Source: an uncultured Chthonomonadaceae bacterium (GTDB lineage: Bacteria; Armatimonadota; Chthonomonadetes; Chthonomonadales; Chthonomonadaceae). From it: a stretch of DNA of 64,000 bases. The position numbers and the translations under genes were made by a program. The stretch lies in the NCBI GenBank assembly GCA_963817895.1, contig CAWFQB010000004.1, forward strand, positions 1 through 64,000, written 5' to 3'. Under the pieces are notes generated by a model. That model saw only the letters and a program-made list of their open reading frames with translations. It made no database searches and was not told the DNA's origin. Positions 37,862-58,499 of this stretch are shown piece after piece (position 1 is the first letter of the stretch; each line of letters begins with the position of its first letter).

Positions 37862-38311
37862 TCACCAGTTTCCGTGCTTTTTCACGTAGTTGTCAAACTG
37901 CTGATCCGTTCCGATGAACCATCGTTCCACCACAGGCTTATCCGGTACGACCTCCACAGCGCCACCCCTGACCGACGGAGCAGACGGAGAGGTTTCTACC
38001 GGAGAGGGTTCGTACTCCACGGGCAAGCGTTGTCGGTTCGTTCCTGAGACATAGTAGAAGTCATCGGCGCTATGCCAGCCCTCTGGTAACGGAGTGGAAG
38101 TTTGCGCCCGTCCATCGGCTGCGATGCGGATTAAATATCGCCCTTCTTCCATCGGGAGGGACGCAGCATCCGAAACTTCGTACTCTACTCGTATTGGCCC
38201 CACATATCCTGCTGGTAGCAGATACCGGCTCGGATGGGTATCATTATTCCCACAGCAAGGGAGATAAAGGAACAAAAGCAAGAGGGCAATCGACCGTATT
38301 ATACGCATCAA
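37862..38311 (-). CDS. Putative lipoprotein
   Basis: Signal peptide ending in Cys; YLLPAGYVG. Confidence 0.6.
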   Translation of the reverse strand: MMRIIRSIALLLLFLYLPCCGNNDTHPSRYLLPAGYVGPIRVEYEVSDAASLPMEEGRYLIRIAADGRAQTSTPLPEGWHSADDFYYVSGTNRQRLPVEYEPSPVETSPSAPSVRGGAVEVVPDKPVVERWFIGTDQQFDNYVKKHGNW

Positions 38312-38476
38312 AACACCTTACACTTTCGGAAACGAAGGCTTGAAGCCGGTTCTTATCACCTCACTCTAACCAATTCCTTGCTCTGAAAACGATGAGAAAT
38401 GGGAAGAACTCCCTCTTATTGGCATTGTCACTATCTGGACGTGGCTACCACGATAGGCGCACCCAACAAGGGTCAC

Positions 38477-39226
38477 TCACTCCCTGGCTCCCGCACGGCG
38501 CAGAAGGATTACAACGTCAGAATGCTTGTTCTGCATCGCCCATTTGAGCGCCGTCTCTCCTCGTGGACACACCACATTCGGGTTGGCTCCCTTCTTGAGC
38601 AGAAAGGCAACATTGTCCGTTCGCCCGTAGAAGGCGGCAATCATCAATGGAGTTGTGCCATAGCCCAAGCGTGAGTTCAAATTTCCCCCAATGAGGATGG
38701 CATTTTGAATATCGGCAGGCGTGCCGTTTCTGGCAGCCACATACACGGTTCCCTCGACCTGTTCGCGCTGCATCTGGCGATATAGCAAACCAATCCCACA
38801 AAAGAACAAAGCGAACAGTAGAATTGATAATCCCAATCTTGCGTCATTGGGTACTTCCCAGAGATGTTTGTCGTCGCCTGCGCGTGTGGAGTGCGTTCGC
38901 CGCCGCAATAGGAGGAAGGGCAATCCCACCAGAAATGAGATGGGGACAGCACATATAAAGGCTGGAACATACACCTCACCAAGCCATGACAACTCTTTCG
39001 GGGAAATATGCGACCAGACAACATAGACAGAAACACACACGCCTGTGAGATAAGACGCCACAAAACTTGCCGTGACCGAGGCTATTAGGTATTTATGGAG
39101 CAGGCAGTGCGAGAGAATGGACGCAAGCCCTGCTGCTGCCAAAAACACGAGGAAGAAAACGTGGTCTATGTCAATATTTGTTACAGGAGTCATCGTCGCG
39201 TTCCTTTCCCAATGCAAGCCTGCCAT
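38477..39226 (-). CDS. Multi-TM ankyrin-repeat protein (start uncertain)
   Basis: TM helices then GTTPLMIAA, GANPN, GETALKWA. Confidence 0.8.
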   Translation of the reverse strand: MAGLHWERNATMTPVTNIDIDHVFFLVFLAAAGLASILSHCLLHKYLIASVTASFVASYLTGVCVSVYVVWSHISPKELSWLGEVYVPAFICAVPISFLVGLPFLLLRRRTHSTRAGDDKHLWEVPNDARLGLSILLFALFFCGIGLLYRQMQREQVEGTVYVAARNGTPADIQNAILIGGNLNSRLGYGTTPLMIAAFYGRTDNVAFLLKKGANPNVVCPRGETALKWAMQNKHSDVVILLRRAGARE

Positions 39227-39369
39227 CTACGCAGCGACCTCTGACGCTTGCCGCACGGAACAGCAGACATCAGAAGTGTAGCATCATTTTCGTCTGCCGG
39301 GCGGAGGATTATAGATGTTATCCAAAATGCCTGCTAAAATACCATTCACAATCAAGACGATGCACATAA

Positions 39370-39516
39370 TCACAGGCATGTGGCAAGGTGCTTATCCTTA
39401 TGATGAGCCGCCTGTGCCGCAATGGGATAGAGCATAGCGGCAACGACCCATGTGAGCGCCATAATAATCAAGCCCTCTGGAATGTAGCCGGGGTAGTGCC
39501 GTTTTCTTGGTTTCAT
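39370..39516 (-). CDS. Small pilin-like TM peptide (48 aa, not in ORF track)
   Basis: ATGA-coupled to upstream gene; MKPRKRHYPGYIPEGLIIMALTWVVAAMLYPIAAQA. Confidence 0.35.
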   Translation of the reverse strand: MKPRKRHYPGYIPEGLIIMALTWVVAAMLYPIAAQAAHHKDKHLATCL

Positions 39517-40172
39517 CCGTGTTTCCACATCCTTCGCTTCATCCCTACATCAGTCCTGTCAGTGCATACATCAGCATCACGACGAATCGGGGCAGCAGAA
39601 CAGACTTCTACATCGTCGGGCAGTTGGAGAAGTTCGCACTTTTCCTCATCGCTCACTTTGCCATCAAGCCATTCGGAGAGGGCAAGCAGGGCTTCGGCGC
39701 GTTCGTGGGCAGAGGGAGGATGAACACGCACTATAAATAAGAATGGCTCCTCTACAAACAACCACAATGAGAATCCACTCGGTGCGATAATATCGCGCCA
39801 GGTCGTTTGAACCTCTTTTTGGCAGTGCGGTGTCCATTGGGTTCCTGTAAACAGGTTATACTTTAGGACGAGTTTGCCCCACTGCCAAAGGTAATCACGC
39901 ATTCCCTCTGCACACGCTATCTTACATTGCGCTTCCTCCCACTGCCAACTCTTACAAGGGGAAGTATAACAAAACACAATTTCATTCTGTTTGGCGAGCC
40001 AGTGATGCGTTGATTCGGCAAACGCATCAGGGAGTACGTGACATGCCCAAGTTGTCACCCGCCGCAGTTCTTCATCCGACCCGCACAAAAACCGCAGCGG
40101 CTCTCCCGGCCCCGGCTTGGTGCGAAACCAGTTCTTAAACCGATACCAGAAGTGAGCCAGACTGTATTTCAT
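39513..40172 (-). CDS. Hypothetical protein
   Basis: ORF in array orientation. Confidence 0.6.
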   Translation of the reverse strand: MKYSLAHFWYRFKNWFRTKPGPGEPLRFLCGSDEELRRVTTWACHVLPDAFAESTHHWLAKQNEIVFCYTSPCKSWQWEEAQCKIACAEGMRDYLWQWGKLVLKYNLFTGTQWTPHCQKEVQTTWRDIIAPSGFSLWLFVEEPFLFIVRVHPPSAHERAEALLALSEWLDGKVSDEEKCELLQLPDDVEVCSAAPIRRDADVCTDRTDVGMKRRMWKHG

Positions 40173-40225
40173 CTTCTGCCCTCGTTTCTTTGCCGTCTCA
40201 TCGCCCGCGCGAACACGACAGGGGC

Positions 40226-40645
40226 TTAATCTTTGATCCCGGCCTGGTGAAGAAAGCGCGCCATCGCCGGGTCTTTAGATTCCTTAGCGAAACGCAGCAT
40301 CGCCTCTCGCTTCAGCATCGCTTCTCGTTTGTCCGGTGAGTTGCTTAGTCTGGCTCCATGCTGCCAGAGAATATTGCATGTTTGTAGATTTCCACTGTTG
40401 ACCGCCATTTCCAGCACGTTAGAACCCGCATCCTCGAAGGTGGGAGGGACGCCCTGTGCTAGAAGCCGCTCCACCTCGGCAGTATGTCCCTTTCCGGCTG
40501 CCTCCCAGAGTTGTTCACCCATTTCATAGGAATGGAAGGCCGTTGTGACAGTATAAACAAACCAGACAACAGGGCAGGCAATACAGGTAAGGACAAGCGA
40601 GCCAATCAAAAGTACACGAAAAGGTTTGGAGAATTTTATTTGCAT
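40226..40645 (-). CDS. Membrane-anchored ankyrin protein
   Basis: TM, LWEAAGKGH..VERLLAQG, LEMAV..G. Confidence 0.75.
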   Translation of the reverse strand: MQIKFSKPFRVLLIGSLVLTCIACPVVWFVYTVTTAFHSYEMGEQLWEAAGKGHTAEVERLLAQGVPPTFEDAGSNVLEMAVNSGNLQTCNILWQHGARLSNSPDKREAMLKREAMLRFAKESKDPAMARFLHQAGIKD

Positions 40646-40663
40646 GGGTCGCCTTTCTCTGCC

Positions 40664-41110
40664 TTACTCCGGCCCATTCACCGCCCGCACTAATTGCTCC
40701 TCATGCCTCTCCTGCCCTTCTGCGGCGGCTCTCAGCAACACAGCCTTTTGTGCCTGCGTCGGTGCCGAAGAAGCGCGAACAAGAGAACCGGGAGCGGGAA
40801 GGTGGGCGGTGTTGGCGCGGGTGAGAGGAACGACATCTTCCACCGTCGCAAATTTTCTGAAACTGGTCTTCATTCCTTTGTAGAAGCAGAAGGTCACTAC
40901 GCTGGACTCAACCGCATATAACGCACGATCTGAATGGAAGGTATAGCGGAGGTCACAGAAAAAATCCAATGCCGAGATGACAACATCTCCTCCGAATTCG
41001 ATGAGCATAAAGCCGCATATTACTGTCAAACAAGCCAGGCTGATGCGTGTAGCCTGTATCCGCAGATACTTCCCCCTGCTTACAATCCGCTTCCCCGTCT
41101 TCGGCTCCAT
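40664..41110 (-). CDS. MEPKTGK...LVRA family protein
   Basis: MEPKTGKRIVSRGKY; PLTRANTAHLP..SLVRASS..VLLRAA..EQLVRA. Confidence 0.85.
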   Translation of the reverse strand: MEPKTGKRIVSRGKYLRIQATRISLACLTVICGFMLIEFGGDVVISALDFFCDLRYTFHSDRALYAVESSVVTFCFYKGMKTSFRKFATVEDVVPLTRANTAHLPAPGSLVRASSAPTQAQKAVLLRAAAEGQERHEEQLVRAVNGPE

Positions 41111-41150
41111 CCCTGCGCCTCTTTCTTCTGCTTTATCCATTTTGCCCCGG

Positions 41151-41495
41151 CTAGAAGTCCTCTCCGGGCTTGAGCACCGTCCGCTCTCCCCTCCATATTC
41201 GTCGTTCTTCTCGAACCGTTAATTTGCCTCTGACGTAATACGTGGTTCCCCATGTCCATTCGCGTATCGGCAATATCACAACACATACATCATCCTCACG
41301 AGGAGAAGCCCCTTGAAGCAACAGACGATGCGCGTTTGCATACTTGCCATCCACATCACTCAGAACTGCTTCCACATAGGCACAATCCAAATGCGCCTGT
41401 TTACTTGGTTTCGGCTGTATCTGCATTATCACCAGTGCCAGCAGAATGAAAGCAAGAAGAATAGACAAGGAGAGTCGAAGTCGTTTTTCCAGCAC
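41151..41495 (-). CDS. Hypothetical exported protein (cassette cargo)
   Basis: N-terminal TM; start overlaps upstream stop. Confidence 0.55.
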   Translation of the reverse strand: MLEKRLRLSLSILLAFILLALVIMQIQPKPSKQAHLDCAYVEAVLSDVDGKYANAHRLLLQGASPREDDVCVVILPIREWTWGTTYYVRGKLTVREERRIWRGERTVLKPGEDF

Positions 41496-42163
41496 TACTT
41501 TTGTCCTCCCACTGCCCGTACCAACTGCTCTGACGAAGTTTCCTGTCCTTGTACGGCGGCGCGGAGTAACACGGTTTGCTGTTCTTGCAACGGCTCGGAA
41601 GACGCGCGTACCAGAGAATCGGGCGCAGGCAGGTCGGCGGTGTTGGCACGGGTGAGGGGGATGCTGTCATGGATTTTTCGGGCGTGTTTGAGACTGACGG
41701 TACTTGCAACGCGACACAGAATTATCCCCAACACCAACGCCGCATAGAAGACAAGGTTCACCGGCACGTACTCCGCTGGCAACCGGTGCCGAGAGGGTTC
41801 TATGGATGCTATAAATTCGTGGGTTTCCTGGGTTACGGAGTCAACATTGATCCGCATGTGCGTAATGGGCTGCGCCAGATAGAAGTCGAAGGCGTTTTTG
41901 ACACAATTGGCGAGGATCAGCAAGACGCCTATCCACACTCCCGCCCTCAACAGGCCGTGTATACCTTTGACAATCACGCCGCGCAGATACTCTCCATACG
42001 GCACGAGGCGCGGTTTGGGTTCTGGTTCGGGTAGCGGTTCGGGTAGCGGCAGAGGCGGATTGTAGTTGTCGCGATCACGGTGGTAGTCCCCGTTGTACAT
42101 GCTCACCGCTTCCAGGCAGGCCGAGAGGTCTATGCGTTTGTCGTCCATCTTCGTCGGTTCCAT
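41495..42163 (-). CDS. MEPKTGK...LVRA family protein (long variable region)
   Basis: MEPTK..RLVPYGEY; PLTRANTADLPAPDSLVRASSEP..VLLRAA..EQLVRA. Confidence 0.85.
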   Translation of the reverse strand: MEPTKMDDKRIDLSACLEAVSMYNGDYHRDRDNYNPPLPLPEPLPEPEPKPRLVPYGEYLRGVIVKGIHGLLRAGVWIGVLLILANCVKNAFDFYLAQPITHMRINVDSVTQETHEFIASIEPSRHRLPAEYVPVNLVFYAALVLGIILCRVASTVSLKHARKIHDSIPLTRANTADLPAPDSLVRASSEPLQEQQTVLLRAAVQGQETSSEQLVRAVGGQK

Positions 42164-42202
42164 CCCTGCGCCCTCCTTCTTCCTCTGCCCTGTTGCTGTT
42201 TG

Positions 42203-42407
42203 TCCTCATGTTCGCCATTGCTCACCAGACTCCTGCTGACAACGCGAGGGAACGAGAAATTGAATGCGGCGGATGGGCGGCAGGCAAACACAGGGCGCGG
42301 CAAGTGGGGCATTGCGAGAGTTTGGCATGGTAGTGTATTTAGTCAGTCGCGCAAGTCATTCCAGCACCACCCTCTCGCCGCCAATGCCAACACCGCACGG
42401 GCCACCA
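42203..42407 (-). repeat. ~200-bp non-coding repeat copy A (promoter-like)
   Basis: Aligns with 47281-47475; minus strand TTGCGC-N16-TACCAT. Confidence 0.7.
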
Positions 42408-42461
42408 GTTTATTAGAGCCGGGGCGAAGAGGGGCGGCATGGTTTCGTTTTTGACGGCTTC

Positions 42462-42950
42462 CTAAACGATGTATTCTCTTACTGATACTTCCAATGCGAG
42501 AATATCGAATGCCCCGTAATCATCAAAACTAACTGCGTAGTGATGTAGATCAGACTCCTTCAGCACATGCCCCAACCGCTCCCCTGGATAGTTTCTAAGA
42601 GGGCCTTTGGAAAGCAGGTTCTCAATATACGGCGAACCTTGAATATCTATCAATCCGAAACAACTCACGCCAGGAGGGTAGTGTTCTAACTCCGGGAAAT
42701 CTTCGTATAGATTCTCGAATGTTCTAAAGCGATACTCGAAGACGTTCTTAAAACGAAATTCTCCATACACCTTTTTTCCGTCAGGCAACCAGTTGAAAAT
42801 GTACTTAAGAACCAAGTGTACGGCTTCATCTGCTATGCCTTGTACTTCGACCCAGGGGCCGTTCACGAAAGCGGTAGACTTGCCGGGAATGGGAATGTTT
42901 ATGAATTGCATTTTGCGTCCTACATGCCGCAGTTTATCCTCACGTTGCAC
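42462..42950 (-). CDS. Hypothetical protein (cassette cargo)
   Basis: AT-richer ORF directly after a family gene. Confidence 0.6.
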   Translation of the reverse strand: MQREDKLRHVGRKMQFINIPIPGKSTAFVNGPWVEVQGIADEAVHLVLKYIFNWLPDGKKVYGEFRFKNVFEYRFRTFENLYEDFPELEHYPPGVSCFGLIDIQGSPYIENLLSKGPLRNYPGERLGHVLKESDLHHYAVSFDDYGAFDILALEVSVREYIV

Positions 42951-42954
42951 CCTC

Positions 42955-43375
42955 TTACCCCTGACCCTCCACCGCCCGTACCAACTGTTCCGGCAGCGTC
43001 TCTTGTCCTTCGGTGGCGGCGCGGAGCAATACAGCCTCCTGCGCCTGCATCGGCTCTGTGGAAGCGCGTACTAGAGTGTCGGGAGGGGCGATCGGCAGTG
43101 TTGTGGCGGGTGAGAGGAACAACCGGTTCGATGGCGCGTACTCTTTGCCCTATTTTCAGTGCTATCCAAAACAGAGCGGCAGCATACAGCATCCAAAAGC
43201 AGAATGCCATTTGCGCTGGAACGGAAGGCATGTACTCCGGGTGTCGCCCCGCAAAGAGCGCAACCATTCCGAAGAAAATTATACACCCCGCGAGTAAACA
43301 CAACTTTGCTTTCTTTAGCAGAAACCGAACATACACCCCTCTGCTCACAATCCACTTGCTCGTCTTCGGCTCCAT
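42955..43375 (-). CDS. MEPKTGK...LVRA family protein (frameshift ~43080)
   Basis: MEPKTSKWIVSRGVY; PLTRHNTAD; shifted frame AVLLRAATEG..EQLVRAVEGQG. Confidence 0.8.
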
Positions 43376-43405
43376 CCCTGCGCCTCCTGCCTGTGCTGCC
43401 CTGTG

Positions 43406-44098
43406 TTACTTTCTGCCTTTTTGCAGCAGCGCTACAAGGTCGGGGCGCTTATTGTTTTGTGCAATCGTAAGGGGAGTCCTTCCAGCCTTGTTGGGGTGGG
43501 TGGGGTCGGCTCCGTGTGCCAGCAGAAGCCGGAGGATACTCGTCTCGTATCTATTGTATAAGGCATAATGTAATGCGGTGTCACCCTGCATATTTTCAAC
43601 GGCAGCGTTCGCGCCATGCTCCACGAGCAGCCCCGTCAGTCCCGCATCCCCGCGCAGAGCGGCAAACATGAGTAGCGTATTGCCTTCAAAGTCTTGTTGG
43701 TCAATGTTCGCGCCATGTACCAGCATCGCACGAATCAAGGGCACATCTTCCAGGGGTTTGATGTCTGCGGTAAAACTAGCCGGGGATGCGTAACATTCTG
43801 TTGCATCCGCCAGTAAAAACGCCGTAAAACTATCCTCGGCAAGCGCAGGCGAACGGTGCAGTAAGTGGCTTAGAAGCAATTTCAGGGTAGGGGCAGGCGG
43901 CGGGTTGTAGCGCGTGTTCGGGTCGGCTCCCGCATTGACGAGGGTAAGCGCCTGTCCGATGTCCTTCCGGTCAAGCGCAGCAATCAACTGCCGATTGAGC
44001 GCATACTGTCGTTTAGCCTGCCGCACCCACACATCACAGCCGCCAACCAGTAGCGCGGCTACAAGCACAGACACAACTAGAAAGCGACGAAGTTTCAT
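43406..44098 (-). CDS. Membrane-anchored ankyrin protein
   Basis: TM, RQ..LNRQLIAAL..GADPN, GNTLLMFAA, GDTALHYA, GRTPL. Confidence 0.88.
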   Translation of the reverse strand: MKLRRFLVVSVLVAALLVGGCDVWVRQAKRQYALNRQLIAALDRKDIGQALTLVNAGADPNTRYNPPPAPTLKLLLSHLLHRSPALAEDSFTAFLLADATECYASPASFTADIKPLEDVPLIRAMLVHGANIDQQDFEGNTLLMFAALRGDAGLTGLLVEHGANAAVENMQGDTALHYALYNRYETSILRLLLAHGADPTHPNKAGRTPLTIAQNNKRPDLVALLQKGRK

Positions 44099-44345
44099 AC
44101 TCCTCACATTCGCCGCCGTTCGCCAAACTCCTGCTTGTTTACCATTGCATCGGCTCTAATTCAGTTTTCAAATGCGAATTCTTAGGAGCAATTCATTTAT
44201 TACATGGCATTGTGGGGATCAGCGTTGCTGCAAACACTATCAGAACGAAAGTCTGAAACCGCCTTTCACAAAGTACACGTAGTGTCATCAGACAAGAACC
44301 TTGTTTTTGCCACCGCGCCTCTGCTTTACGCGCAAGGAGAACCCC

Positions 44346-45098
44346 ATGCTTGAACACCAGCCCACGACAGAGGAGAACACCGCCGATCTTTTGCCGCAAA
44401 CTCACACTCTCTCTGTTAGGCTGCCGACGCAAGCCTACGCCGTTCTCGTTCGTTACGTGGCACAAACACAATCTGCTAACGCAGACACAGAAACCATTCG
44501 CGCCCAATTGGAAGAATTGACACTTGCGTACTTGGAACTCGACGCCCCACCCCACGAAGCCGCGCAGTCCGCCATCCGGCAATGGGAGAATGAGCGGCTG
44601 GTGCTGGGAGAGGGACAGGCGCTTTCCACGCAAAGTAAACCCTATCATTCCACACGGTCTGCGCGTCCGGCAACGCTTACTGCCCTGAAACTGTTTGGAG
44701 CAGGCGCGTTGGCTTTAACCACGATTACGCCTTTTCTCATTGGCACAAGCGTTCCCTCCATCTGGTACTCATTGATGATATTTCTGATAATCGGGCTGCC
44801 TGCCTTGTTGGGAATAGCGGTCGGAATACGCGCTCGGCAACGTCCTGTCTTGGGAACATTCTACGCTGTAAGTCTGTTGATTCCCAGTGTTGCGCTCATC
44901 ACGGAACTGATAATGGACATCTTCACGCAGTATCCTCACGAAGGCTGGATGTTGGGCATGGACATCGGGCTGTTCTGGCTGCCGATTGGCTGCCTGACAG
45001 CGGGCCTGACCGGATGGGGACGTAACCAGCGCCACAAACGCCAACAATATGCGGTAAACCGAATGACTTCCCTGCACGCGGCGGAAAGTAGACTATGA
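44346..45098 (+). CDS. Hypothetical membrane protein
   Basis: AAGGAG RBS; ~4 TM segments; only credible plus-strand gene in the array. Confidence 0.65.
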   Translation: MLEHQPTTEENTADLLPQTHTLSVRLPTQAYAVLVRYVAQTQSANADTETIRAQLEELTLAYLELDAPPHEAAQSAIRQWENERLVLGEGQALSTQSKPYHSTRSARPATLTALKLFGAGALALTTITPFLIGTSVPSIWYSLMIFLIIGLPALLGIAVGIRARQRPVLGTFYAVSLLIPSVALITELIMDIFTQYPHEGWMLGMDIGLFWLPIGCLTAGLTGWGRNQRHKRQQYAVNRMTSLHAAESRL

Positions 45099-45207
45099 AT
45101 GGAATTCTCGTGACTGATTTCGGGGCAGCAAAGGGGAATGCAACAAATGTTTGAAGAATGTTCTATACCCGGAATGGAGGGCTTCTTAGAGGGAGTGGGC
45201 CAGGCGG

Positions 45208-45251
45208 ATAACAAGAAGCAGGCGGAAAATTTTCCGCCTGCTTCTTGTTAT
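45208..45251. terminator. Perfect 44-bp palindrome between convergent genes
   Basis: ATAACAAGAAGCAGGCGGAAAA|TTTTCCGCCTGCTTCTTGTTAT. Confidence 0.65.
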
Positions 45252-45350
45252 ACCATTTTTGGATAGTCGTAGGCTCCGATATTGTGCGTTGACGGGGCAT
45301 AGGCATTTGGACATGTTACTCCTGTCCCGCAGAAGCGCGTACAACATGTG

Positions 45351-45842
45351 TCAATCAATGCCTTGCTTGTACTTCCACCAGTCCAGCCCCCATACGGCAA
45401 GCCCTGCGATAAAACAGACCACGCCTAGAAGTATTTGCGTTTGACTGTCATCCGTGTTGGGAGAAGCGCCTTGTACGGCGCGCTCTTGGATGTAGTGCCT
45501 GAACAGGATAAAGCCGCCAATCCCCCAGGCTGCTAAAGGCGTCAGGCAACTTGGCTTCTGGCGTGTAGACGGGTCTGACGAAGACGGTTGGGGCGGCCCC
45601 AAACTGATGAAGTGAGACAGCGCCGCAGGCTTCCCCGTTGGTTTATAGACAAACAGGTAGTACCCGCTGGCACATGCGAGCAAGCCGCCCATTATCCAGA
45701 TGACGTACTTTGCATTGCCTAAAGAAGGCGAGTCTTCGCTAGATACGAAACTGCTCCCAATCCCAAGCAAGGAGTAGATCAAAATAGCCCAGGCAACACC
45801 GCGTAGCCATTTGGGTTTAGTTGGTTGGGGTTGATCGTCCAC
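45351..45842 (-). CDS. Hypothetical membrane protein (cassette cargo)
   Basis: 4 hydrophobic segments. Confidence 0.6.
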   Translation of the reverse strand: MDDQPQPTKPKWLRGVAWAILIYSLLGIGSSFVSSEDSPSLGNAKYVIWIMGGLLACASGYYLFVYKPTGKPAALSHFISLGPPQPSSSDPSTRQKPSCLTPLAAWGIGGFILFRHYIQERAVQGASPNTDDSQTQILLGVVCFIAGLAVWGLDWWKYKQGID

Positions 45843-46011
45843 TGGTTGCGCTTCCTTTCTCCTGTGCTTCTGCCGATGCTCTCACCAACAGTTCCTCATA
45901 CCTCTCCTGCCTTTCCTGTGCCGCCCGAAGCAACACAGCCTTTTGTGCCTGCGTCGGTTCCGAAGATGCGCGAACTAGGCTGTCGGTGATGGGAAGGTCG
46001 GCGGTATTGGC
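45817..46011 (-). pseudogene. Orphan C-terminal module of the LVRA family
   Basis: ANTADLPITDSLVRASSEPTQAQKAVLLRAAQERQERYEELLVRA with in-frame stop just upstream and no start. Confidence 0.8.
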
Positions 46012-46025
46012 ATACTCTTATTGGT

Positions 46026-46418
46026 TCAACCCAGAGGAGATTTCTTCCATCTGCGGTTGACTTTCTTGTACTTCCTTTTTAGTTGCTCGTAATAACGCCG
46101 TTCCGACTGTTCACGATTACGAGGCGTGGTGCGGTTGTGTGTCGCCACTGGGTCTACTTCGGAAACCTCCACAACGCGAATGGTTATGCCATCGCCAACG
46201 TGCAGCGTCTCGTCTAACCATTTCCCAACTTCAGAGAATTCTTCTGTTCCGCAAACCGCGCTAACATGAAAATTGACTTTATTATCATGCGGATAATCAC
46301 GAGGGTCTCTGACAGACTGATGCTGAAGCCATGTGAGCATTGCCGACATTAAGCCATTCCCCGTTATGCCAGTGGTACATTTCTTGCCACCATTGATACT
46401 TATCTCGAAGGCTAACAC
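46026..46418 (-). CDS. Hypothetical protein (cassette cargo)
   Basis: GGAGGA RBS, GTG start, LAFEISING.. Confidence 0.6.
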   Translation of the reverse strand: MLAFEISINGGKKCTTGITGNGLMSAMLTWLQHQSVRDPRDYPHDNKVNFHVSAVCGTEEFSEVGKWLDETLHVGDGITIRVVEVSEVDPVATHNRTTPRNREQSERRYYEQLKRKYKKVNRRWKKSPLG

Positions 46419-46449
46419 AGTTCCTCCAACTTCTGAATAAATATGTTTC

Positions 46450-46863
46450 CTATTCTTGTTCCACAGACGCCCGTACCAACTGCTCAGGCGGTGTCTCCAC
46501 CCCTTCTGCGGCGGCGCGGAGAAGGACGGATTCCTGCGCCTGCGTCGGTTCTGATGACGCGCGAACAAGAGAATCGTGCGCGGGCAGGTGAGAGATAGTG
46601 GCAAGTTGTACGTTATTGCGCTCACAATAATCTTGCGTAAAGCGGTACAGCGTGAGCCAGGGCGCTTGCGTCTTCTTTCGTAAGAGCGACACTAGACCCA
46701 ACAATGTCGGTAGGTGTTCTTTGTCCGATGACGCTTGTAGTTCTTCTGCCAATATGGTTTCAAAAACTTGGTGCCAGTCAATATGGTATCTCTTGCGTAC
46801 TAACAGGGATGGTATTTCGCTTGGCTTATTAGTTTCAGGTTCGCTACCCGTCGTCGGCTCCAT
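46450..46863 (-). CDS. MEPKTGK...LVRA family protein (soluble variable region)
   Basis: MEPTTG; HLPAHDSLVRASSEP..VLLRAA..EQLVRA. Confidence 0.82.
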   Translation of the reverse strand: MEPTTGSEPETNKPSEIPSLLVRKRYHIDWHQVFETILAEELQASSDKEHLPTLLGLVSLLRKKTQAPWLTLYRFTQDYCERNNVQLATISHLPAHDSLVRASSEPTQAQESVLLRAAAEGVETPPEQLVRASVEQE

Positions 46864-46884
46864 CTCTGCACCCTCCTGCCTGTG

Positions 46885-47286
46885 CTACCACATATCTTCT
46901 TCGGCTGTTTTGACCGCCTCGCAGAACTTTGAGTATTCAGGATGATCGGGTTTGAACGTACTTATGCCTGTCCAGTGCATAGTGGTTCCCTCGGCTTCGT
47001 TTACCCAGCCTGTTCCAGAACAACGCATGGTGAGCGCACCGTCAGGCAAAAAGCGAGCAGAAGAAAGGTTGTACCAGGTATAAAACTGAGTATTCTGAGC
47101 ATTTGTCACCATCAGGCTCTTGATGGCCCCGGAACTATGTATTGAATACTTATCCTTCTGGATCGAAGTATAGTACATGCGCGGCTTCTTCTTTGCCACT
47201 TCCGTTTCTTTAGTCCTCTCGCTCTCAAACCGCTTCCGAATTGCTCGCACTTGTGGCGTCCACCTTCCAAGCGCTCTACTTCCCAC
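46885..47286 (-). CDS. Hypothetical protein (cassette cargo; start uncertain)
   Basis: Stop abuts the conserved leader of the next family gene. Confidence 0.5.
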   Translation of the reverse strand: MGSRALGRWTPQVRAIRKRFESERTKETEVAKKKPRMYYTSIQKDKYSIHSSGAIKSLMVTNAQNTQFYTWYNLSSARFLPDGALTMRCSGTGWVNEAEGTTMHWTGISTFKPDHPEYSKFCEAVKTAEEDMW

Positions 47287-47475
47287 ATTCGCCGCCGCTT
47301 ACCAAACTCCTGCCCTTCTGTAAATAAATGCTGCGGCAAACTGGGCGGCAGACAAATTGAGGCGCGGCAAGCAGGCGTAGCAAGAGAGTGGCACGGTAGT
47401 GCCCCTTGTCAGCCGCGCAAGCCATCCATTGCCGCCCTCTTGACGTTGCTCCCTTCCATACAAGCCAGGCCACCA
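47281..47475 (-). repeat. ~200-bp non-coding repeat copy B
   Basis: Aligns with copy A; TTGCGC-N16-TACCGT. Confidence 0.7.
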
Positions 47476-47584
47476 ATGCGCGAAGGCAGCGGACAACGGG
47501 AATAAGGAGCCACCATACCCGGTGGTGGATGCGGTGGCTTTGATGCTGTTTGCGGTTTAGAGAACCCTGCGAAAATGATTGCTG

Positions 47585-47863
47585 CTAAACTTTCCAGCGA
47601 CCGTCTACATATTGTTTGAGTTCGTTTCGGTAATCACTCGCACTGCCGCGCTCCATTTCAGGAACATGGACATCGCAGTACCGATTGATAAACTGATAAG
47701 CACTTAGCCAATCTGCATCGCTCTGATCACGAAGCCACAAGGTCAGACCCAATCGTGTTACCACTACGCCTTCCGCAGTACGGCGGTCGATCTCTTGCGC
47801 TAACGCCTCCTCATACTTCGGGCCACGATAGGGACACGTCAGCGGATTACCAGTCAAAGACAT
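47585..47863 (-). CDS. Hypothetical protein (cassette cargo)
   Basis: GGGAG RBS; follows a family gene. Confidence 0.55.
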   Translation of the reverse strand: MSLTGNPLTCPYRGPKYEEALAQEIDRRTAEGVVVTRLGLTLWLRDQSDADWLSAYQFINRYCDVHVPEMERGSASDYRNELKQYVDGRWKV

Positions 47864-47883
47864 TTTTATCTCCCTAACCTGTG

Positions 47884-48099
47884 TTACTCTCTATGCCCCT
47901 CCACCGCCCGCACCAATTGCTCCTCATGCCTCTCATTCCCCTCGGTTGCGGCTCTCAGCAACACGGCCTCCTGCGCCTGCAACGGTGCCAAAGAAGCGCG
48001 AACCAGAATGTCAGATGGCTGAATTGGTGGCTCTGGTTCTCCTAACAAAACCACTATCACCCGCTCTATAAACTGACGCTTCCCCGTCTTCGGCTCCAT
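47884..48099 (-). CDS. Minimal MEPKTGK...LVRA family protein (71 aa)
   Basis: MEPKTGKR + ~20 aa + ILVRAS..VLLRAA..EQLVRA. Confidence 0.8.
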   Translation of the reverse strand: MEPKTGKRQFIERVIVVLLGEPEPPIQPSDILVRASLAPLQAQEAVLLRAATEGNERHEEQLVRAVEGHRE

Positions 48100-48127
48100 C
48101 CTTGCGCCTCCTTCCTGTCTCTATGCA

Positions 48128-48205
48128 CTGCCGTCTCCCGCCTACGCTCCCGGCCTCGTATCCTGCCTCTGTTGGTGGGGAGGGCTTCTGCGGCTTCTGT
48201 GTCCC
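48128..48205. repeat. ~80-bp repeat shared with 49589-49670
   Basis: ctgcc.tctcccgc.tacgctccc.gcctcgt.tcctgcc.ctgt...ttctgtgtccc. Confidence 0.7.
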
Positions 48206-48216
48206 TGCGTGTCGGC

Positions 48217-48633
48217 TTACTCTTTGGCTCCGGCATGTTGGAGAAGGCTGATTACTGCCTTAACGTCTTTAGTGCGTTGGCTGGCAGGGTAGTTGTGTAA
48301 ACCTACCCACCTTATAGGCAAATTGTACTTCGCGAGTTCTAAGGCTGAACTATCAGCAGGATTTTGTCGGCTGACAGTGTTGAGCCACAACCGCCAACTA
48401 GGGGTACTCACATAATAGTCTGAGAACCATAATCCCCGCGCATTTGCACCGGCTCCCTGTTGGAGCAATCGTGAAACGGCAGGAGGATCGGGAAATAAAA
48501 TGGCAGCAATCAACGCTTGGTTCAACTTTGCTTGTCGCCATGCCTGCCACGTCAATACAGCAGGTACAGCCATCAGTATCACGAGCAGCCCGCAAACAAG
48601 TAAAGTCAAACGCAAAAATCGGTGTTTCTTCAT
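48217..48633 (-). CDS. Membrane-anchored ankyrin-like protein
   Basis: TM, RQAKLNQALIAAI..LLQQGAGANAR, LLQHAGAKE. Confidence 0.75.
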   Translation of the reverse strand: MKKHRFLRLTLLVCGLLVILMAVPAVLTWQAWRQAKLNQALIAAILFPDPPAVSRLLQQGAGANARGLWFSDYYVSTPSWRLWLNTVSRQNPADSSALELAKYNLPIRWVGLHNYPASQRTKDVKAVISLLQHAGAKE

Positions 48634-49121
48634 ACTTTCCTCTGCCCTTCCACCGCCCGTACCAATTCCTCCTCATGCCTATCCTGCCCTTCTGCGGCGG
48701 CTCTCAGTAAAACGGCCTGCTGTGCCTGCATCGGCTCGGAAGAAGCGCGTACCAGGCTGTCAGGAGCAGGAAGGTCAGCGGTATTGAAGCGGGTGAGAGG
48801 AACGCCAAGATTAATCTGGTTAGCCCTGTTTTCTGCGGCTTTGTAGGCGCGAATGGTTGCTCGCAAAGGGGTTTTCATCAGCATCAATAAATGGGAAGTC
48901 GTTTGGTGGCAGGGCGCATCTTGAGCATATAGCATTCTCGGAAAGTGTCTTATAAGGCCGTCTAAGATAGATAATATGATGAGACTTGGCAACAACACTA
49001 TTACCTGACATACCACCACAATGCAATGAAAAATGCACAAAGCCATCCAAGCCTCGCGAAGGAACATTCGCCGTACATACTCCCCTTTACTCACAATCTT
49101 CTTACCCGTCGTCGGCTCCAT
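48630..49121 (-). CDS. MEPKTGK...LVRA family protein
   Basis: MEPTTGKKIVSKGEY; PLTRFNTADLPAPDSLVRASSEP..VLLRAA..EELVRA. Confidence 0.85.
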   Translation of the reverse strand: MEPTTGKKIVSKGEYVRRMFLREAWMALCIFHCIVVVCQVIVLLPSLIILSILDGLIRHFPRMLYAQDAPCHQTTSHLLMLMKTPLRATIRAYKAAENRANQINLGVPLTRFNTADLPAPDSLVRASSEPMQAQQAVLLRAAAEGQDRHEEELVRAVEGQRKV

Positions 49122-49163
49122 CCCTGCGCCTCCTGCCTCTGCTGTCTGTCCTGTGGCTGTTCG

Positions 49164-49475
49164 TCAGTTTCGGTAGTGAACGCTCGACTCCTGCTGCCCT
49201 GCTTTCACGAATTCTATTCCTCTCTCGTCCCATACGCGCACGAAAATTAAATAAAAGCCACTCCCGCCGTCTATGCTCCCTTGATGTCCGACGCGCCATT
49301 GCCGCCAGTGGCGCAGAGGCGTCACGTAGTAATTTCGCTCCTCCAACTCTCTAAAGACCCTACCCTCGGCTGTGGTGTACGTTTTCGTATGATTGGGGAG
49401 AGGCCGAGCAATCCAACAGAGTGCCGCAAGCATCAGAACTAGGGGCATCTTCACGAGACAAGAGAGGCTGTTCAT
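49164..49475 (-). CDS. Hypothetical exported protein (cassette cargo)
   Basis: GGGGAG RBS, hydrophobic N-term. Confidence 0.45.
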   Translation of the reverse strand: MNSLSCLVKMPLVLMLAALCWIARPLPNHTKTYTTAEGRVFRELEERNYYVTPLRHWRQWRVGHQGSIDGGSGFYLIFVRVWDERGIEFVKAGQQESSVHYRN

Positions 49476-49602
49476 GCTCCCCACATTCGTCATTGCTACC
49501 AAGATTTCTACCTGCCTTTCGCCTCACTCCTCTGCTTCCCCGCCTGCTCTTTTCAGGTTCGCAGTCCCCTTCGACCTGTCTGTACGTCCTGCCATCTCCC
49601 GC

Positions 49603-50235
49603 TTACGCTCCCAGCCTCGTGTCCTGCCCCTGTGGGGAAGGTTGGGGCGGTTCTGCTGTTTCTGTGTCCCATACGGAGCCATTTTTGGTATGCTTGACGC
49701 CAAGCAACACGCGGATCGCCGTCACATAGCGCTCAAACACTTTACTGCGTTGTGAGCCGGTCTCCTGGCTCCTCAATGCTGGCTTGCTTACGTCTGCGTC
49801 AGAGGGATAGTCACAAGTATTCTGAATCCTTCGTGACTTCCCTTTCTGTCCCGACTGCTCAATCATCAGCCCCCAGCGTTCGGAACCGTTGAACGGCCCC
49901 GGCTTCTCCTGTAACCATTGCCACAGGTGTACCGCCTCCATTTCCTGCCAGAACTGCTTCCAGGCTTGGGGAGAAGGAGTGACTTCTTTGACATCTGGTA
50001 TTATTATCCCGAAGTGTACCGGGAAAGTGAAGTATTCCAGTGCCTTGCCGTTCCAGTTGACTTCATAGTGGTCTTTTCTATCTTCAATATACAGTGCGAA
50101 GCACTTGGGGAGGTACGGCGCTTTTGTGTTGATAGGCGAATTCTTTTTGGACTGTGCTGGTAAGGGCAACGTATAAATGGATAAGAGAACAAAAAGCCAT
50201 GCGAAACTAAGTTGATTCGTCTTCCTGTTCATCAT
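49603..50235 (-). CDS. Hypothetical secreted protein (cassette cargo)
   Basis: Signal peptide; ATGA overlap with upstream family gene. Confidence 0.65.
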   Translation of the reverse strand: MMNRKTNQLSFAWLFVLLSIYTLPLPAQSKKNSPINTKAPYLPKCFALYIEDRKDHYEVNWNGKALEYFTFPVHFGIIIPDVKEVTPSPQAWKQFWQEMEAVHLWQWLQEKPGPFNGSERWGLMIEQSGQKGKSRRIQNTCDYPSDADVSKPALRSQETGSQRSKVFERYVTAIRVLLGVKHTKNGSVWDTETAEPPQPSPQGQDTRLGA

Positions 50236-50721
50236 TCCTCCTGCCCTTCCACAGCCCGCACCAACTGCTCAGGCGGCGTCTCGTGTCCCTGGGCGGCGGC
50301 GCGGAGGAGGACGGACTGCTGCGTTCTGTTGCGGTACCGAAGACGCGCGTACCAGACTGTCAGAGGCGGGAAGTTCGGCGGTGTTAGCGCGGGTGAGGGG
50401 CTGTAAGTCCCTAATAACAATTCTACTTTTATGACTTTCTCGCCACAGAACACGAAGGGTATAGCCAAGTGGCCCCAATAAGAAAAGACACCAAAAAAAA
50501 GCCATCATTGCATGTGTAATCGTAGGAACATATCTGACGTTATAACGCATCAATCCGCTCTGTTCCTGTGCGTCTAAGGCGCAGGCGGAGGGAATGTTTA
50601 CCAGTAACAACACGATGCCGAGGCCGCAAACCAAAACGCTGCTACATAGAAATAATGAGAGTGACTGCGCCTTAACATATTCGCCCTTGCTCACAATCCG
50701 CTTGCCCATCTTTCGCTCCAT
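50232..50721 (-). CDS. MEPKTGK...LVRA family protein (frameshift ~50325)
   Basis: MERKMGKRIVSKGEY; PLTRANTAELPASDSLVRASS; shifted SVLLRAA..EQLVRAVEGQEE. Confidence 0.82.
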
Positions 50722-50739
50722 CCCTGCGCCTCCTTCTCT

Positions 50740-51186
50740 CTACTCCTGTCCATTCACCGCCCGCACCAATTCCTCCGATGGTGTCTGACTTCCCTCTGAG
50801 GCGGCACGGAGCAATATGGTTTGTTGTACCTGAACCGGCTCCGAAGAAGCGCGAACAAGGCTGTCCGCGCCGGGTAGGTCGGCAGTGTTGGAGCGGGTGA
50901 GAGGGAGGCCCGAATCTGTTTCTTTCGCTTCTTTTACTGCACCTACGCCGAAGTAGAGAAGCGCAACGGATAAACCACCCATGAACAAGATTATAAACAC
51001 AAGAAGCGGTAACTCCGACCATTTGAAGCGCACAAGTCCCATGCCAAACAAACCACAGGTGCAGACGAAACAAAACCCTCCGATTAGAAAAACAATTACG
51101 CCGAAGGAAGATAAGGCCAACTTACTTCCAAGATTGACGGCGTACCTGCCTTTACTCACGATCTGTTTACCCGTCTTCTGTTCCAT
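50740..51186 (-). CDS. MEPKTGK...LVRA family protein (first in array)
   Basis: MEQKTGKQIVSKGRY; PLTRSNTADLPGADSLVRASSEP..ILLRAA..EELVRA. Confidence 0.85.
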   Translation of the reverse strand: MEQKTGKQIVSKGRYAVNLGSKLALSSFGVIVFLIGGFCFVCTCGLFGMGLVRFKWSELPLLVFIILFMGGLSVALLYFGVGAVKEAKETDSGLPLTRSNTADLPGADSLVRASSEPVQVQQTILLRAASEGSQTPSEELVRAVNGQE

Positions 51187-51288
51187 CTTTACGCCTTTTG
51201 TTACTCTGCATGTCTGCCATTTCAGCATATTACAACTTCGAGGCTAAGAGCGTTTAGAAAAAGTAAAATCCTGCGTTTCTATTCGGCC

Positions 51289-51750
51289 TCAATGTCGCCT
51301 CGCAACGTATTGAAAGCGTTGCGCTTTCACTTCGATGATGCGCCTGCACGGGGCAAAGTAGGCATCAGAAAAGACTTTTTCTAAACGCTCTAACAATGCC
51401 AGCCCCAGAAATGTTGCCAGCAGTGGAAGCAGGAACATCACCAGCACAGCCATCGCATAGAAGGCATGATCGGGATAACGCCCGTTCACGGCTGTCACTG
51501 CCCAACAGCCGAAAACCACATTGACCACACTGCTGATACACAAGCCAACCATCCAAAAGGCTCCGACAACTATCATATCAGGACTGCCACTGCGAACCGC
51601 CTCTCCCAAGCGCCCTCCGATCCACATAGCGATCTGGCAGGCACATCCAGGCTGAGATAACCAACGTCCGAGACCAAGAAGTATGAATATCGTCACTGAC
51701 GCAATTTTGGACATGATGGTTTCGTAGCCTCTGCACAATCGTGAAGGCAA
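51289..51750 (-). CDS. Hypothetical membrane protein
   Basis: Several hydrophobic segments. Confidence 0.5.
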   Translation of the reverse strand: MPSRLCRGYETIMSKIASVTIFILLGLGRWLSQPGCACQIAMWIGGRLGEAVRSGSPDMIVVGAFWMVGLCISSVVNVVFGCWAVTAVNGRYPDHAFYAMAVLVMFLLPLLATFLGLALLERLEKVFSDAYFAPCRRIIEVKAQRFQYVARRH

Positions 51751-51867
51751 GGTCGGTAATCACTACATTATCTGATACAGCAGTGTAGGCTTACGCCTAC
51801 TGTGGTGATCTTCGCTATGGCTCATTCCGGCAAAAGGGCCAATGGCTTGCGCCGGTCGAGCCACAAA

Positions 51868-52467
51868 TTACCGTTTCGCGCCTGCGTTGAGAAGCATTTG
51901 AACAATCTCAGGATGATGAAATTCGCGTGCATAGTGGAGCGCACCCCAATTGCTGTCTTCGTGATCGTAGACATCTACATCGGCTCCTCGGTCAAGAAGC
52001 GCTTGCACAATGTCCGTGTATCCTTCGGCAGCGGCCCAGATGAGAACAGGCAGATCGTCGTCGTTGAGAGCGTTGAAATCACGCGCGCCATGTTCAATCA
52101 GGGCTTTGACGACAACAGCATCGCCATGACTTTGTTTCATCCCTAACGCCAGTTGCAGTGTGGAGCGCGGATATTCTTCCATATCATCTGCGGCGTTTGT
52201 GACTGCGGGAGATCGCTGATAATACGCATGAAACACTTGCCAGAACGTTGGAAGTGGTTTGTCGCTGTCACGCGCATTGGCGTTGGCTCCGGCGTCTAGC
52301 GCGTTCAGCACGGCATTAGCGTTGTCGGCAAGGATAGCAGCAATCAGGTCATGGTCAACATGCTGTTGCCGATACTGCTTGTACGGCAAGGCGCATACAG
52401 CCAGCACGAACAACAAAGGAAACAGGATAGGAGAGAAATGGGCAGGACGTTGAAAATGGTGGATCAT
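51868..52467 (-). CDS. Membrane-anchored ankyrin protein
   Basis: TM, DLIAAI..GANANARD, LIWAAAEG, GALHYA. Confidence 0.85.
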   Translation of the reverse strand: MIHHFQRPAHFSPILFPLLFVLAVCALPYKQYRQQHVDHDLIAAILADNANAVLNALDAGANANARDSDKPLPTFWQVFHAYYQRSPAVTNAADDMEEYPRSTLQLALGMKQSHGDAVVVKALIEHGARDFNALNDDDLPVLIWAAAEGYTDIVQALLDRGADVDVYDHEDSNWGALHYAREFHHPEIVQMLLNAGAKR

Positions 52468-52688
52468 GGTTTACGCTCCGCGTCGCCGCACGTATCATCT
52501 GATCAGAAGGCTCGACAATTCATAGACACTTCTTGATCTTGAGCCTACCTCTGATTGCTGGTTGTCTTCATCCCAGTGGAACATAAACGTTCCTCGCCAG
52601 TATGCACCATCTGCTGCCAAGTTGTTAGTGTACGAATGGAGTAAACTTCTACAAAGGCAAGCAATGAACAATTCGCCTTGAAGTGTGT

Positions 52689-53335
52689 CTATTTCGCTCC
52701 TGCGTTCTTTAGCAGCCTGATGAGATTAGCGTTTCTATCCGCCAGCATCAGGGCTGTATCACCATTGTCATCACGAAGATTGGGATTTGCCCCATTCGAG
52801 AGCAAGATGGAAGCCGTCTGCATAAATTCATCGTTTATGGCCCACATGAGCGGCGTTCTTCCCATGTATCCTTTGGCATCCAGATTAGCCCCCTTGTTTA
52901 TCAAGGCCGCCACGATAGCAGGTTCATCAGTTTCCTTTTCAAGACAGAACCGGTATCCTCTATCAGATGTCTCATAAACAATCTGCCCGTTTGTCATTGT
53001 CATTTGCGTTAGCACCGGTTGGCCTCCACCTACGGCGAGGAGCAATGCTGTTCGGCTGGAATTTTGGTTTCCCCAATGTCGGCCTCGTAGTCTCAGGAGC
53101 CATTGCTGCCAATTGGACACATTGCGATACTCGCTGTCTGTGGCATTGGGGTTTGCACCCCTGGCAAGGGCTACGAGTACAGGCTTGGTGTAGCCTTGTT
53201 CAACGGCAGCAATAAGAGCCTGATCCAACTGTGTCTGCCGCCATGCGCGCCACATCAGCACAACGGGAACCGCCAACAGCACCAACATCAGGCCAGACGC
53301 GATCAGGGTAGTACGGGAGGCGTGTGGCGTGTCAT
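52689..53335 (-). CDS. Membrane-anchored ankyrin protein (N-terminal frameshift)
   Basis: RQTQLDQALIAAV..GANPN, GRTPLMWA, GDTALMLA. Confidence 0.85.
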
Positions 53336-53340
53336 AGCGT

Positions 53341-53547
53341 TTATTCCTTTCTGGTGGACGACCTATTCACGCGAAAGCCGACAATTAGGCAGACGATACT
53401 CGTTATCCCGGTAACGAGCGTGTAGGTTTGAAAATCCGATGTTGCCTGAGCATTGTCGCCTAATCCACCCACCAGCCCAGTAAAGAAGGCTAGTCCCAGG
53501 GTCACGAACAATCCCAGCGCGCCGAGGCAAATCAAGGTAGTTCGCAT
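53341..53547 (-). CDS. Small 2-TM protein
   Basis: AAGGA RBS, two hydrophobic helices. Confidence 0.55.
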   Translation of the reverse strand: MRTTLICLGALGLFVTLGLAFFTGLVGGLGDNAQATSDFQTYTLVTGITSIVCLIVGFRVNRSSTRKE

Positions 53548-53597
53548 TAACAGTTCCTTAAATGAATGTTCTGCTTCTCTCCTCCACCGATAGGTTG

Positions 53598-54095: not shown

Positions 54096-54131
54096 TCTCT
54101 GCGAACTCCTGCCTCACCGCGCGCCTTTTCG

Positions 54132-58466: not shown

Positions 58467-58499
58467 CACTATCCATCTTTCTGCCCCAATCTAGGCACA

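Follow-up and report, generated by a model that had tools for sequence, protein, structure and literature searches.

The window studied here is a stretch of 64,000 nucleotides from an uncultured Chthonomonadaceae bacterium (GenBank assembly GCA_963817895.1, contig CAWFQB010000004.1, positions 1 to 64,000). Positions 40664-51186 hold nine minus-strand copies of a gene family, here called F, which lie among unrelated open reading frames (ORFs). The family is unnamed and encodes small predicted membrane proteins with two conserved ends, the N-arm and the C-arm, around a variable middle. With a probability of about 0.58, the array represents paralogues of a dispersed family that are remodelled by ordinary recombination anchored at the protein-conserved arms, with no dedicated integrase. 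The arms are constrained as protein, the array has a slot structure, one transfer was bounded by the arms, foreign ORFs are flanked by arm stubs, and no integron features were found. Both the family Chthonomonadaceae and the order Chthonomonadales belong to the phylum Armatimonadota. Array genes and leaders are on the minus strand unless (+) is given.

The nine copies, named after their start positions, had been described in an earlier note made from the letters of this DNA, and all were recovered at these places with an nhmmer profile made from these same copies (E 1e-47 to 2e-37). Independently, a repeat finder detected a 173-nt family with 8 copies (63-80% identity to the reference copy) and a second 8-copy family that corresponds to the leader and N-arm, in line with the note's statement that most copies share these parts. 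The C-arm ends in a tail of three LLR[AP] motifs about 14 residues apart. Intact two-helix genes are 41110 (40664-41110), 42163 (41495-42163, 222 aa, a long-loop subfamily also found at C4:397392-398261 and in the congener G001), 49121 (48630-49121, 163 aa) and 51186 (50740-51186, 148 aa, with a predicted helical hairpin at residues 12-53 and 56-89 followed by the C-arm). Copy 50721 (50232-50721) encodes two helices up to a +1 frameshift, after which the C-arm is out of frame, and in copy 43375 (42955-43375) a -2 shift at the start of the C-arm has the same effect. Because a comparison of 40 conserved genes with a congener showed frame changes in 4 of them, or roughly one every 9 kb of this assembly, both frameshifts may be assembly errors rather than real.

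The C-arm is present in all nine copies as claimed, but only its last ~44 aa are kept in 46863 (46450-46863) and 48099 (47884-48099). The middles are usually two-helix, soluble in 46863 and almost absent in 48099, as had been read from the sequence; copy 46011 is a bare C-arm remnant (45860-46015) without N-arm or middle. The note had also called the middles unrelated. For 780 pairs from 40 copies in several genomes the median identity was indeed only 23%, but the median Z against shuffles was 1.6, 16% of these pairs had Z>4, and most middles are hydrophobic hairpins of like shape; they are weakly alike. A different gene was said to follow nearly every copy, often with overlap. Cargo ORFs do adjoin the copies, but the F stop overlaps the next start in only 3/9 of them: by 4 nt before a 210-aa ORF with a hydrophobic N-terminus and no family match (49603-50235), by 4 nt before a membrane-anchored ORF that resembles the N-part of an ankyrin gene (48217-48633) and by 1 nt before a 114-aa ORF (41151-41495). 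The remaining six gaps are 2-40 nt, two of them measured to an uncertain start. In the three overlapping cases a purine-rich GGAGG-like run lies in the last C-arm codons, just ahead of the cargo start, and therefore the end of the C-arm could act as a ribosome-binding site for the cargo. The family also occurs outside the array: of 26 C-arm hits in the genome, 17 belong to 16 loci elsewhere, and most F copies are dispersed singletons, including one elsewhere in the window (23133-23696, minus strand).

For the analyses of constraint, shared tracts and Mantel correlation, only copies in a 50-codon register were used. Three non-F rows caught by the search pattern were removed before counting, the near-duplicate copy L054 was left out of the tract and Mantel analyses, and the atypical copy C3:668301 was left out of the Mantel analysis. 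In 46 in-register C-arms from eight genomes, identity at the three codon positions was 0.67, 0.76 and 0.43. A test of the dN/dS type (nonsynonymous versus synonymous change) on the arms gave a proportion of synonymous differences (pS) of about 0.65 and a proportion of nonsynonymous differences (pN) of about 0.25, both alike within and between genomes. The third codon positions vary freely, and the F arms are protein motifs under purifying selection, not DNA recombination sites. Of the two roles that the note had offered for the arms, that of recombination sites is contradicted by these results and by junctions at differing positions. The role of homology arms survived in part: the arms separate from middles and cargo, and foreign ORFs lie between stubs, but no homogenisation was detected within genomes.

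The note had described the array as integron-like, without attC sites or an adjacent integrase. Indeed, in 39400-53400 no pair of the attC core pattern RYYYAAC...GTTRRRY was found, with 1.0 expected from 200 shuffles, and none of the nine C-arms, folded on both strands (18 folds), folded better than its shuffles (z from -1.7 to 2.9). The integron integrase model TIGR02249 gave no match over its 265-bit cut-off in any of five genomes, among them this genome (81% complete) and the congener G001 (97%); the best match in this genome scored 114 bits. A fixed crossover point was not seen, as the junctions fall at different codons in both arms and at five or more places in the C-arm, and hence nothing appears site-specific. 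From the missing attC pattern, hairpin and integron integrase it is concluded that the array is not an integron. Integrons and CALIN arrays (clusters of attC sites lacking integron integrases) consist of co-oriented short orphan ORFs separated by a repeat. The F array shares this layout, but its repeat is coding, unstructured and without the core-site pattern, and no integron integrase accompanies it. Below the cut-off, a partial integron-integrase match (140 bits, model positions 4-131) was noticed at G016:C202:2222-2605 in a relative with 67% completeness.

Separate histories of arms and middle are seen in copy 41110 and a copy of the congener G002 (G002:C68). Their middles are identical at 199/216 nt (92%) and differ synonymously in 5/60 conserved codons, and their C-arms are identical at 117/165 nt (71%) with synonymous differences in 20/39 (Fisher p=2.5e-6). 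The boundary for this comparison was set by eye; a rule-based boundary (5/61 vs 20/39) gave the same result. For the two genomes, rpoB (258/1038) and a gene of the syntenic flank (159/506) served as baselines of synonymous codon differences. The value for the middle is lower than those for rpoB (p=0.003) and the flank gene (p=7e-5), and that for the C-arm is higher than that for rpoB (p=6e-4), which dates the middle to after the species split and the C-arm to before it. Family-wide the C-arm is the most conserved part, yet it is the diverged part of this pair, and each of the two C-arms is nearer to a paralogue of its own array (0.82 and 0.83) than to the other (0.74). The neighbours of the two copies differ on both sides, and the shared tract begins at the leader and stops where the C-arm begins. 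On the simplest reading, this tract would have been transferred from one lineage to another and become linked to a different C-arm. In Mantel tests with 33 copies, N-arm and C-arm were correlated (rho 0.53, p=0.0005), and the middle showed no significant correlation with either the C-arm (-0.18) or the N-arm (-0.06).

Foreign sequence lies at arm stubs in the window copies 46863, 48099 and 46011. The chimeric copy 46863 consists of a 6-codon N-arm stub, a soluble cargo-type domain and a partial C-arm, and its middle is 35% identical over 48 aa to the stand-alone 92-aa cargo ORF at 47585-47863. No homologue of this middle was found in 67 other genomes or the protein database, and a comparison of the stand-alone ORF with phages gave none either. 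Copy 48099 (71 aa) joins an 8-codon N-arm stub and ~20 unrelated codons to its partial C-arm, and a cargo ORF of ~140 aa with uncertain start (46026-46448) ends 14 nt before the C-arm remnant of copy 46011. Similar arrangements occur in G002. At G002:C67 the N-arm stub has 16 codons, and after it comes an entire 230-aa ORF, the stop codon of which directly adjoins the C-arm stub. At G002:C68 an unrelated 86-codon stretch extends from the N-arm GTG to the second LLR motif, and at G002:C46 a SUKH-4 immunity gene lies behind an ankyrin gene and an N-arm stub. Since the joints vary in both arms, they are in keeping with joining that is homology-anchored or illegitimate, and not with the action of a site-specific enzyme.

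Two repeated parts were absent from the earlier note, a K gene and a non-coding leader of ~130-160 nt ahead of an ankyrin slot. The full form of the leader is found at 42201-42361 and 47279-47433, its short form at 44100-44135 and 49475-49511 (the latter 62% to the reference). It is followed by a family A gene with an N-terminal membrane anchor and ankyrin repeats (43406-44098, spanning 43406-44135 with the leader core), by one of two other ORFs without family match (46885-47286, start uncertain; 49164-49475, 103 aa) or by nothing, as at 42201-42361, where the slot is empty and the leader runs directly into F; where the slot is filled, F comes next. In the family K gene (39513-40172), too, the ends are conserved and the middle varies. 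It comes after F-cargo units both here and in three arrays of G002, where the repeated unit recurs with other contents and the orders are leader-A-F-cargo-K-leader-A-F (C42), A-F-F-K (C45) and F stub-K-F-cargo-F-K (C68). From this recurring pattern of leader, slot and F, the window is understood as several repeats of one operon-like unit that differ in slot contents. The GC content of the cargo is 0.45-0.54 and that of the genome 0.57. When gene order was compared with the relatives, at one genome per species, it was not fixed between the congeners: in G001 the genes on one side of the array are syntenic and the place of the array is taken by other genes, and a five-copy F tandem without cargo lies elsewhere in that genome. 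Matches to K were found in 3/67 other genomes and none in the ESM Atlas, and the model of K was unusable, with a predicted local distance difference test score (pLDDT) of 45. At G000:C4:435052-439914 the K-family genes are long (350-400 aa), carry an additional N-terminal region and form a tandem of five; similar tandems were observed in G002:C44 and G001.

F matches were found at E<=1e-8 in 18/41 other genomes of the same family, where some weak hits may be to the tail only, and in 0/26 genomes of two other families of the order. A first scan of the genome collection with a single protein as query gave no match. That F belongs to no named family, as the note had held, was confirmed by searches of Pfam, NCBIfam, PADLOC and PHROGs, none of which gave a match. 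The best score in the ESM Atlas was 0.77, and a Foldseek search with the F model returned nothing at E<=0.001. A literature search, with subscription papers and supplements largely outside its coverage, found no description of family F or of the triple-LLR tail. In the AlphaFold model of F (pLDDT 82) both helices of the hairpin, residues 12-53 and 56-89, have a pLDDT above 90, and a short strand pairs the N-arm with the start of the C-arm. F is predicted to be a two-helix membrane hairpin with both ends cytoplasmic. F genes are also found broken by insertion sequence (IS)-like insertions, stops and frameshifts. In G001, the same IS-like sequence lies within two different F genes (L023:12500-13800 and L025:8900-10200), and at G000:C4:401787 an IS-like insertion cuts the N-arm.

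The tail extends well beyond F. Searched for as LLR[AP]-like motifs at a spacing of 10-16 residues, it was present in 63/107,787 open frames (58 triple, 5 double) and in none of the reversed frames. These 63 comprise 22 F copies or remnants, 29 members of one cluster of HEAT-like membrane proteins, and small groups and singles; a HEAT-like ORF with the same triple tail is located in the window itself (33746-34270, minus strand). A profile of 38 tails matched 19/19 genomes of the family, 13/16 of a second family in the order and 1/265 other genomes of the phylum. Because it was built from this genome, it is less sensitive for more distant ones, and no more than 24 candidates were scored per genome; by these counts the triple-LLR tail appears almost confined to the order Chthonomonadales. 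In the protein database at least 1,248 clusters matched (8,000 candidates scored), and among the 120 matches listed the few source names were 'hypothetical' or 'HEAT repeat protein'. Exactly three motifs within the last 110 residues were counted in 115 of the 119 database matches examined, the tail ended <=25 residues from the C-terminus in 111 of these 119, and 93/102 longer matches had a hydrophobic segment. The tail alignment gave one weak member match in NCBIfam and none over chance, and none among PDB sequences. The tail is hydrophilic and follows the hydrophobic segments; it does not have the sortase-type layout of a motif followed by a transmembrane helix and a basic cluster at the C-terminus. 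In small genomes of the order it occurs on 3-7 HEAT-like proteins with unrelated neighbours, which indicates that the tail predates F. The database matches also include members of a third family with the tail, which is represented at G000:C4:647763-649602 by a tandem of three membrane proteins that have a small soluble domain. At G000:C9:138200-138805 a soluble 195-aa protein without family match ends in an F-type tail, which suggests that unrelated genes can acquire the tail. At G000:C11:92761-95466 a frame annotated by eye as oxidoreductase-like continues, without a change of frame, as a membrane-HEAT-tail protein, either as a fusion or through an assembly error.

The proposed remodelling would proceed as follows. 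Incoming DNA would pair with the array at an N-arm or a C-arm; the uptake gene ComEC is present in 3/3 genomes. Middles or cargo blocks would be exchanged by two homologous crossovers of the RecA type; a half-homologous event, with one joint homologous and the other illegitimate, would place a foreign ORF inside an F gene. There, the N-arm leader or the end of the C-arm with its GGAGG-like run would provide the captured ORF with a ribosome-binding site. In the protein, the N-arm is predicted to pair with the start of the C-arm and close the membrane hairpin, and the three LLR[AP] motifs may dock on one common cytoplasmic partner that would be shared with ~40 other, mostly membrane, proteins. 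Variable middles together with the ankyrin genes would then give a diversified repertoire for recognition or protection at the cell envelope.

Several observations weigh against this proposal. ComEC was also found in 10/14 control genomes, and saturation of the middles could explain the missing Mantel signal. Three of four orthologue-like cross-species pairs were usable (C4:23696 / G002:C42 was left out, as the G002 range used did not translate in frame), and only one of them, 41110/G002:C68, is a clean swap. In the syntenic pair C1:565055 / G002:C45, pS is 0.63 in the middle and 0.58 in the C-arm, and pN is 0.45 and 0.11; because pS is equal and pN about fourfold higher, fast protein evolution alone explains the pattern. 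The third pair showed no incongruence between arm and middle (p=0.26). The incongruence that the note had proposed to look for is clear in one of the three usable pairs; the Mantel pattern agrees with it but could equally come from saturation. No concerted evolution was detected (pS 0.65 within genomes vs 0.65-0.67 between them), exact tracts >=20 nt were no commoner within genomes (11/234 pairs) than between them (18/432), and no run of third-position identity was significant (global p 0.16 or more); a 38-nt tract shared by neighbouring G002 copies is no excess over between-genome pairs. The arms average 65% nucleotide identity, which is low for efficient homologous recombination. The linkage of F to ankyrin genes is weak in this genome, with 3/17 loci within 3 kb vs 5.4% at random (p=0.06). 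Since IS-like insertions and stops hit F genes, these may be dispensable targets in a variable region. In the model of F the tail consists of low-confidence short helices at the LLR motifs (pLDDT 57-73), and both docking and topology are predictions.

Many of these observations agree with a birth-and-death process of lineage-expanded paralogues in a variable island, which is considered possible, though unlikely. An operon-like unit would have been duplicated in tandem, its weakly constrained transmembrane middle would have diverged fast, and foreign genes would have been inserted by chance into dispensable copies; the arms would have no special part in moving DNA and the middle shared by 41110 and G002 would be a rare transfer. 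The lack of homogenisation and conversion tracts, middles that are weakly alike and same-shaped, the higher pN at equal pS of the syntenic pair, the 16 F loci outside the array, the broken F genes and the plain five-copy tandem of G001 are all in its favour. It does not readily account for a shared tract that is bounded by leader and C-arm start, for arm stubs that bound foreign sequence at three G002 loci and three window copies, with one ORF ending exactly at its stop codon, or for an ankyrin slot that holds four different contents between the same two repeats in the window.

A doubtful alternative, which is compatible with recombination at the arms, is that of an orphan immunity array. The ankyrin, F, K and cargo genes would then be polymorphic antitoxins against toxins of rivals, gathered by recombination at conserved ends. 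The SUKH-4 gene behind an N-arm stub at G002:C46 would fit, as would Rhs core genes in 3/3 genomes, and F lies near membrane-anchored ankyrin genes in 7/20 metagenome loci, although these loci are not independent and ankyrins are not diagnostic of immunity families. tipC arrays, as far as they are described in PMC9484751, have the same end-conserved layout. However, searches of Pfam, NCBIfam, PADLOC and PHROGs placed none of the window's cargo ORFs in an immunity family, neither the array nor the DNA next to it showed a toxin gene, the four Rhs matches of this genome all lie outside the window, and the tail is also carried by single-copy-like HEAT membrane proteins across the order. The note's comparison with polymorphic toxins is not supported: no ORF of 36000-56000 is a full-length toxin that heads the array and combines a conserved N-terminus with a toxic C-terminus that varies, the Rhs core hits lie elsewhere, and F itself has neither toxin-like character nor a conserved-N/variable-C layout. 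In G002, which has 21 Rhs matches compared with 4 here, Rhs core genes form tandem runs at G002:C53:451218-467380 and C49:355860-364232.

A dedicated site-specific cassette system of the integron or shufflon type, with arms that are recombinase targets and happen to be translated, is highly improbable and largely refuted by free third codon positions and scattered junctions and by the lack of fold, attC pattern and integrase reported above, even though the ORFs are short, co-oriented and below the genome in GC content, the two ends of the C-arm show a loose 13-nt inverted match to each other in some copies and some junctions fall at a start or stop codon.

Recombination anchored at conserved arms has counterparts among known systems. 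The tipC and esaG immunity arrays of type VII secretion are tandem paralogues with conserved 5' and 3' blocks and a variable centre, recombining through the blocks, and tipC is membrane-bound (PMC9484751). The F array likewise has tandem paralogues, conserved ends and variable middles. In contrast to these arrays as described there, it interleaves cargo and two other families, carries foreign ORFs between stubs, has no adjacent cognate toxin and gave no statistical sign of conversion within genomes. In the lpl cluster of Staphylococcus aureus, recombination can use a conserved coding block to reshuffle units that extend over neighbouring genes (PMC2568036). According to this account lpl has one central block and gene halves are shuffled, whereas F has two terminal blocks, and therefore the exchangeable units of F would be the middle and the cargo between copies. 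In the type III mod genes of Helicobacter pylori, motif-coding DNA flanks provide the homology that moves a variable middle between loci and species (PMC3467074). Middle and arms have different histories in both systems; the mod middle is described as a DNA-recognition domain of known role, whereas for that of F a transmembrane hairpin is predicted, and F loci also contain complete foreign ORFs. Homology-facilitated illegitimate recombination combines one homologous with one illegitimate joint and is reported to be very rare in E. coli conjugation (PMC3240628). It would leave foreign DNA beside an arm stub with variable breakpoints, as at the F loci, but it is a process and not a type of locus. 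The tail resembles the C-terminal sorting signals PEP-CTERM and MYXO-CTERM in that one short C-terminal domain is found on dozens of different proteins per genome and is clade-limited; those signals end in a transmembrane helix and basic residues, whereas the LLR tail is hydrophilic, threefold and placed after the membrane segments. The F array works most like tipC/esaG, the lpl clusters and mod domain movement, and is set apart by its interleaved cargo, three co-repeated families and shared tail.

Other features of the window are as follows. Further ORFs of the array are a 163-aa ORF with several hydrophobic segments and no family over cut-off (45351-45842), an ORF of 149-162 aa, depending on the start, without family match (42462-42950), and a membrane-anchored ORF with a weak ankyrin match under the cut-off (40226-40645, E 2e-4). 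On the opposite strand, a 265-aa ORF with a hydrophobic C-half has no family over cut-off (44301-45098, +). Between convergent genes lies a perfect, terminator-like 22-bp inverted repeat (45208-45251), on which a known-RNA search gave its only, sub-threshold, hairpin matches. Scans of the window for sigma-70 promoters and terminators remained at chance level, and no tRNA was found in it. Membrane-anchored ankyrin genes flank the array at 38477-39226 (minus strand), 51868-52467 and 52689-53288. A 69-nt intergenic repeat at 48107-48175 has a second copy at 49568-49636 (81%), and a 53-nt intergenic stretch at 51778-51840 recurs at C4:60304-60355 in opposite orientation (85%). Upstream of copy 51186, a 150-nt element (51244-51393) with 18-nt terminal inverted repeats resembles a miniature inverted-repeat transposable element; copies are present at C1:1587179-1587328 (100%) and C3:526143-526290 (99%), and a partial one at C4:594007-594105. 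A perfect hairpin with a 13-bp stem was observed at 55219-55248. The minus-strand stretch 55436-58979 looks like a conflict or defence module and contains an EACC1-like ORF (58500-58979, under cut-off), a caspase domain (57900-58469) and a Hel308/HamB-like helicase (55436-57928), the latter two overlapping out of frame and possibly one frameshift-split gene; with the helicase as query the module was not found in G001 or G002. A Prim-Pol fragment with helix-turn-helix (HTH) domains (59404-60750, +) and an HTH protein (62856-63533, +) beside the island are possibly the remains of an integrated element.

A wider and more tentative proposal, rather unlikely as a whole and built in part on analogy, places the array in an envelope recognition system of the Chthonomonadales. 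Dozens of polymorphic membrane hairpins (F, membrane-HEAT proteins and others) would share the threefold LLR[AP] cytoplasmic tail and would all signal, or be handled, by way of it, and arrays of F, ankyrin and K genes would be integrase-free capture platforms, whose coding arms both anchor recombination and supply translation signals. Immune receptors with multi-motif adaptor tails offer an analogy for such a shared tail, and its many-to-one distribution points to a shared partner. The mechanism of the array is of a known kind and its layout is new; the clade-wide C-terminal motif is the more general discovery. If coding homology moves middles between species and flanks captured ORFs, the mode of tipC and lpl would extend to integron-like capture without an integrase. 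If only birth-and-death holds, a new protein family and a new domain that merits a library entry would still stand. Tail and array alike are testable subjects in a poorly studied phylum.

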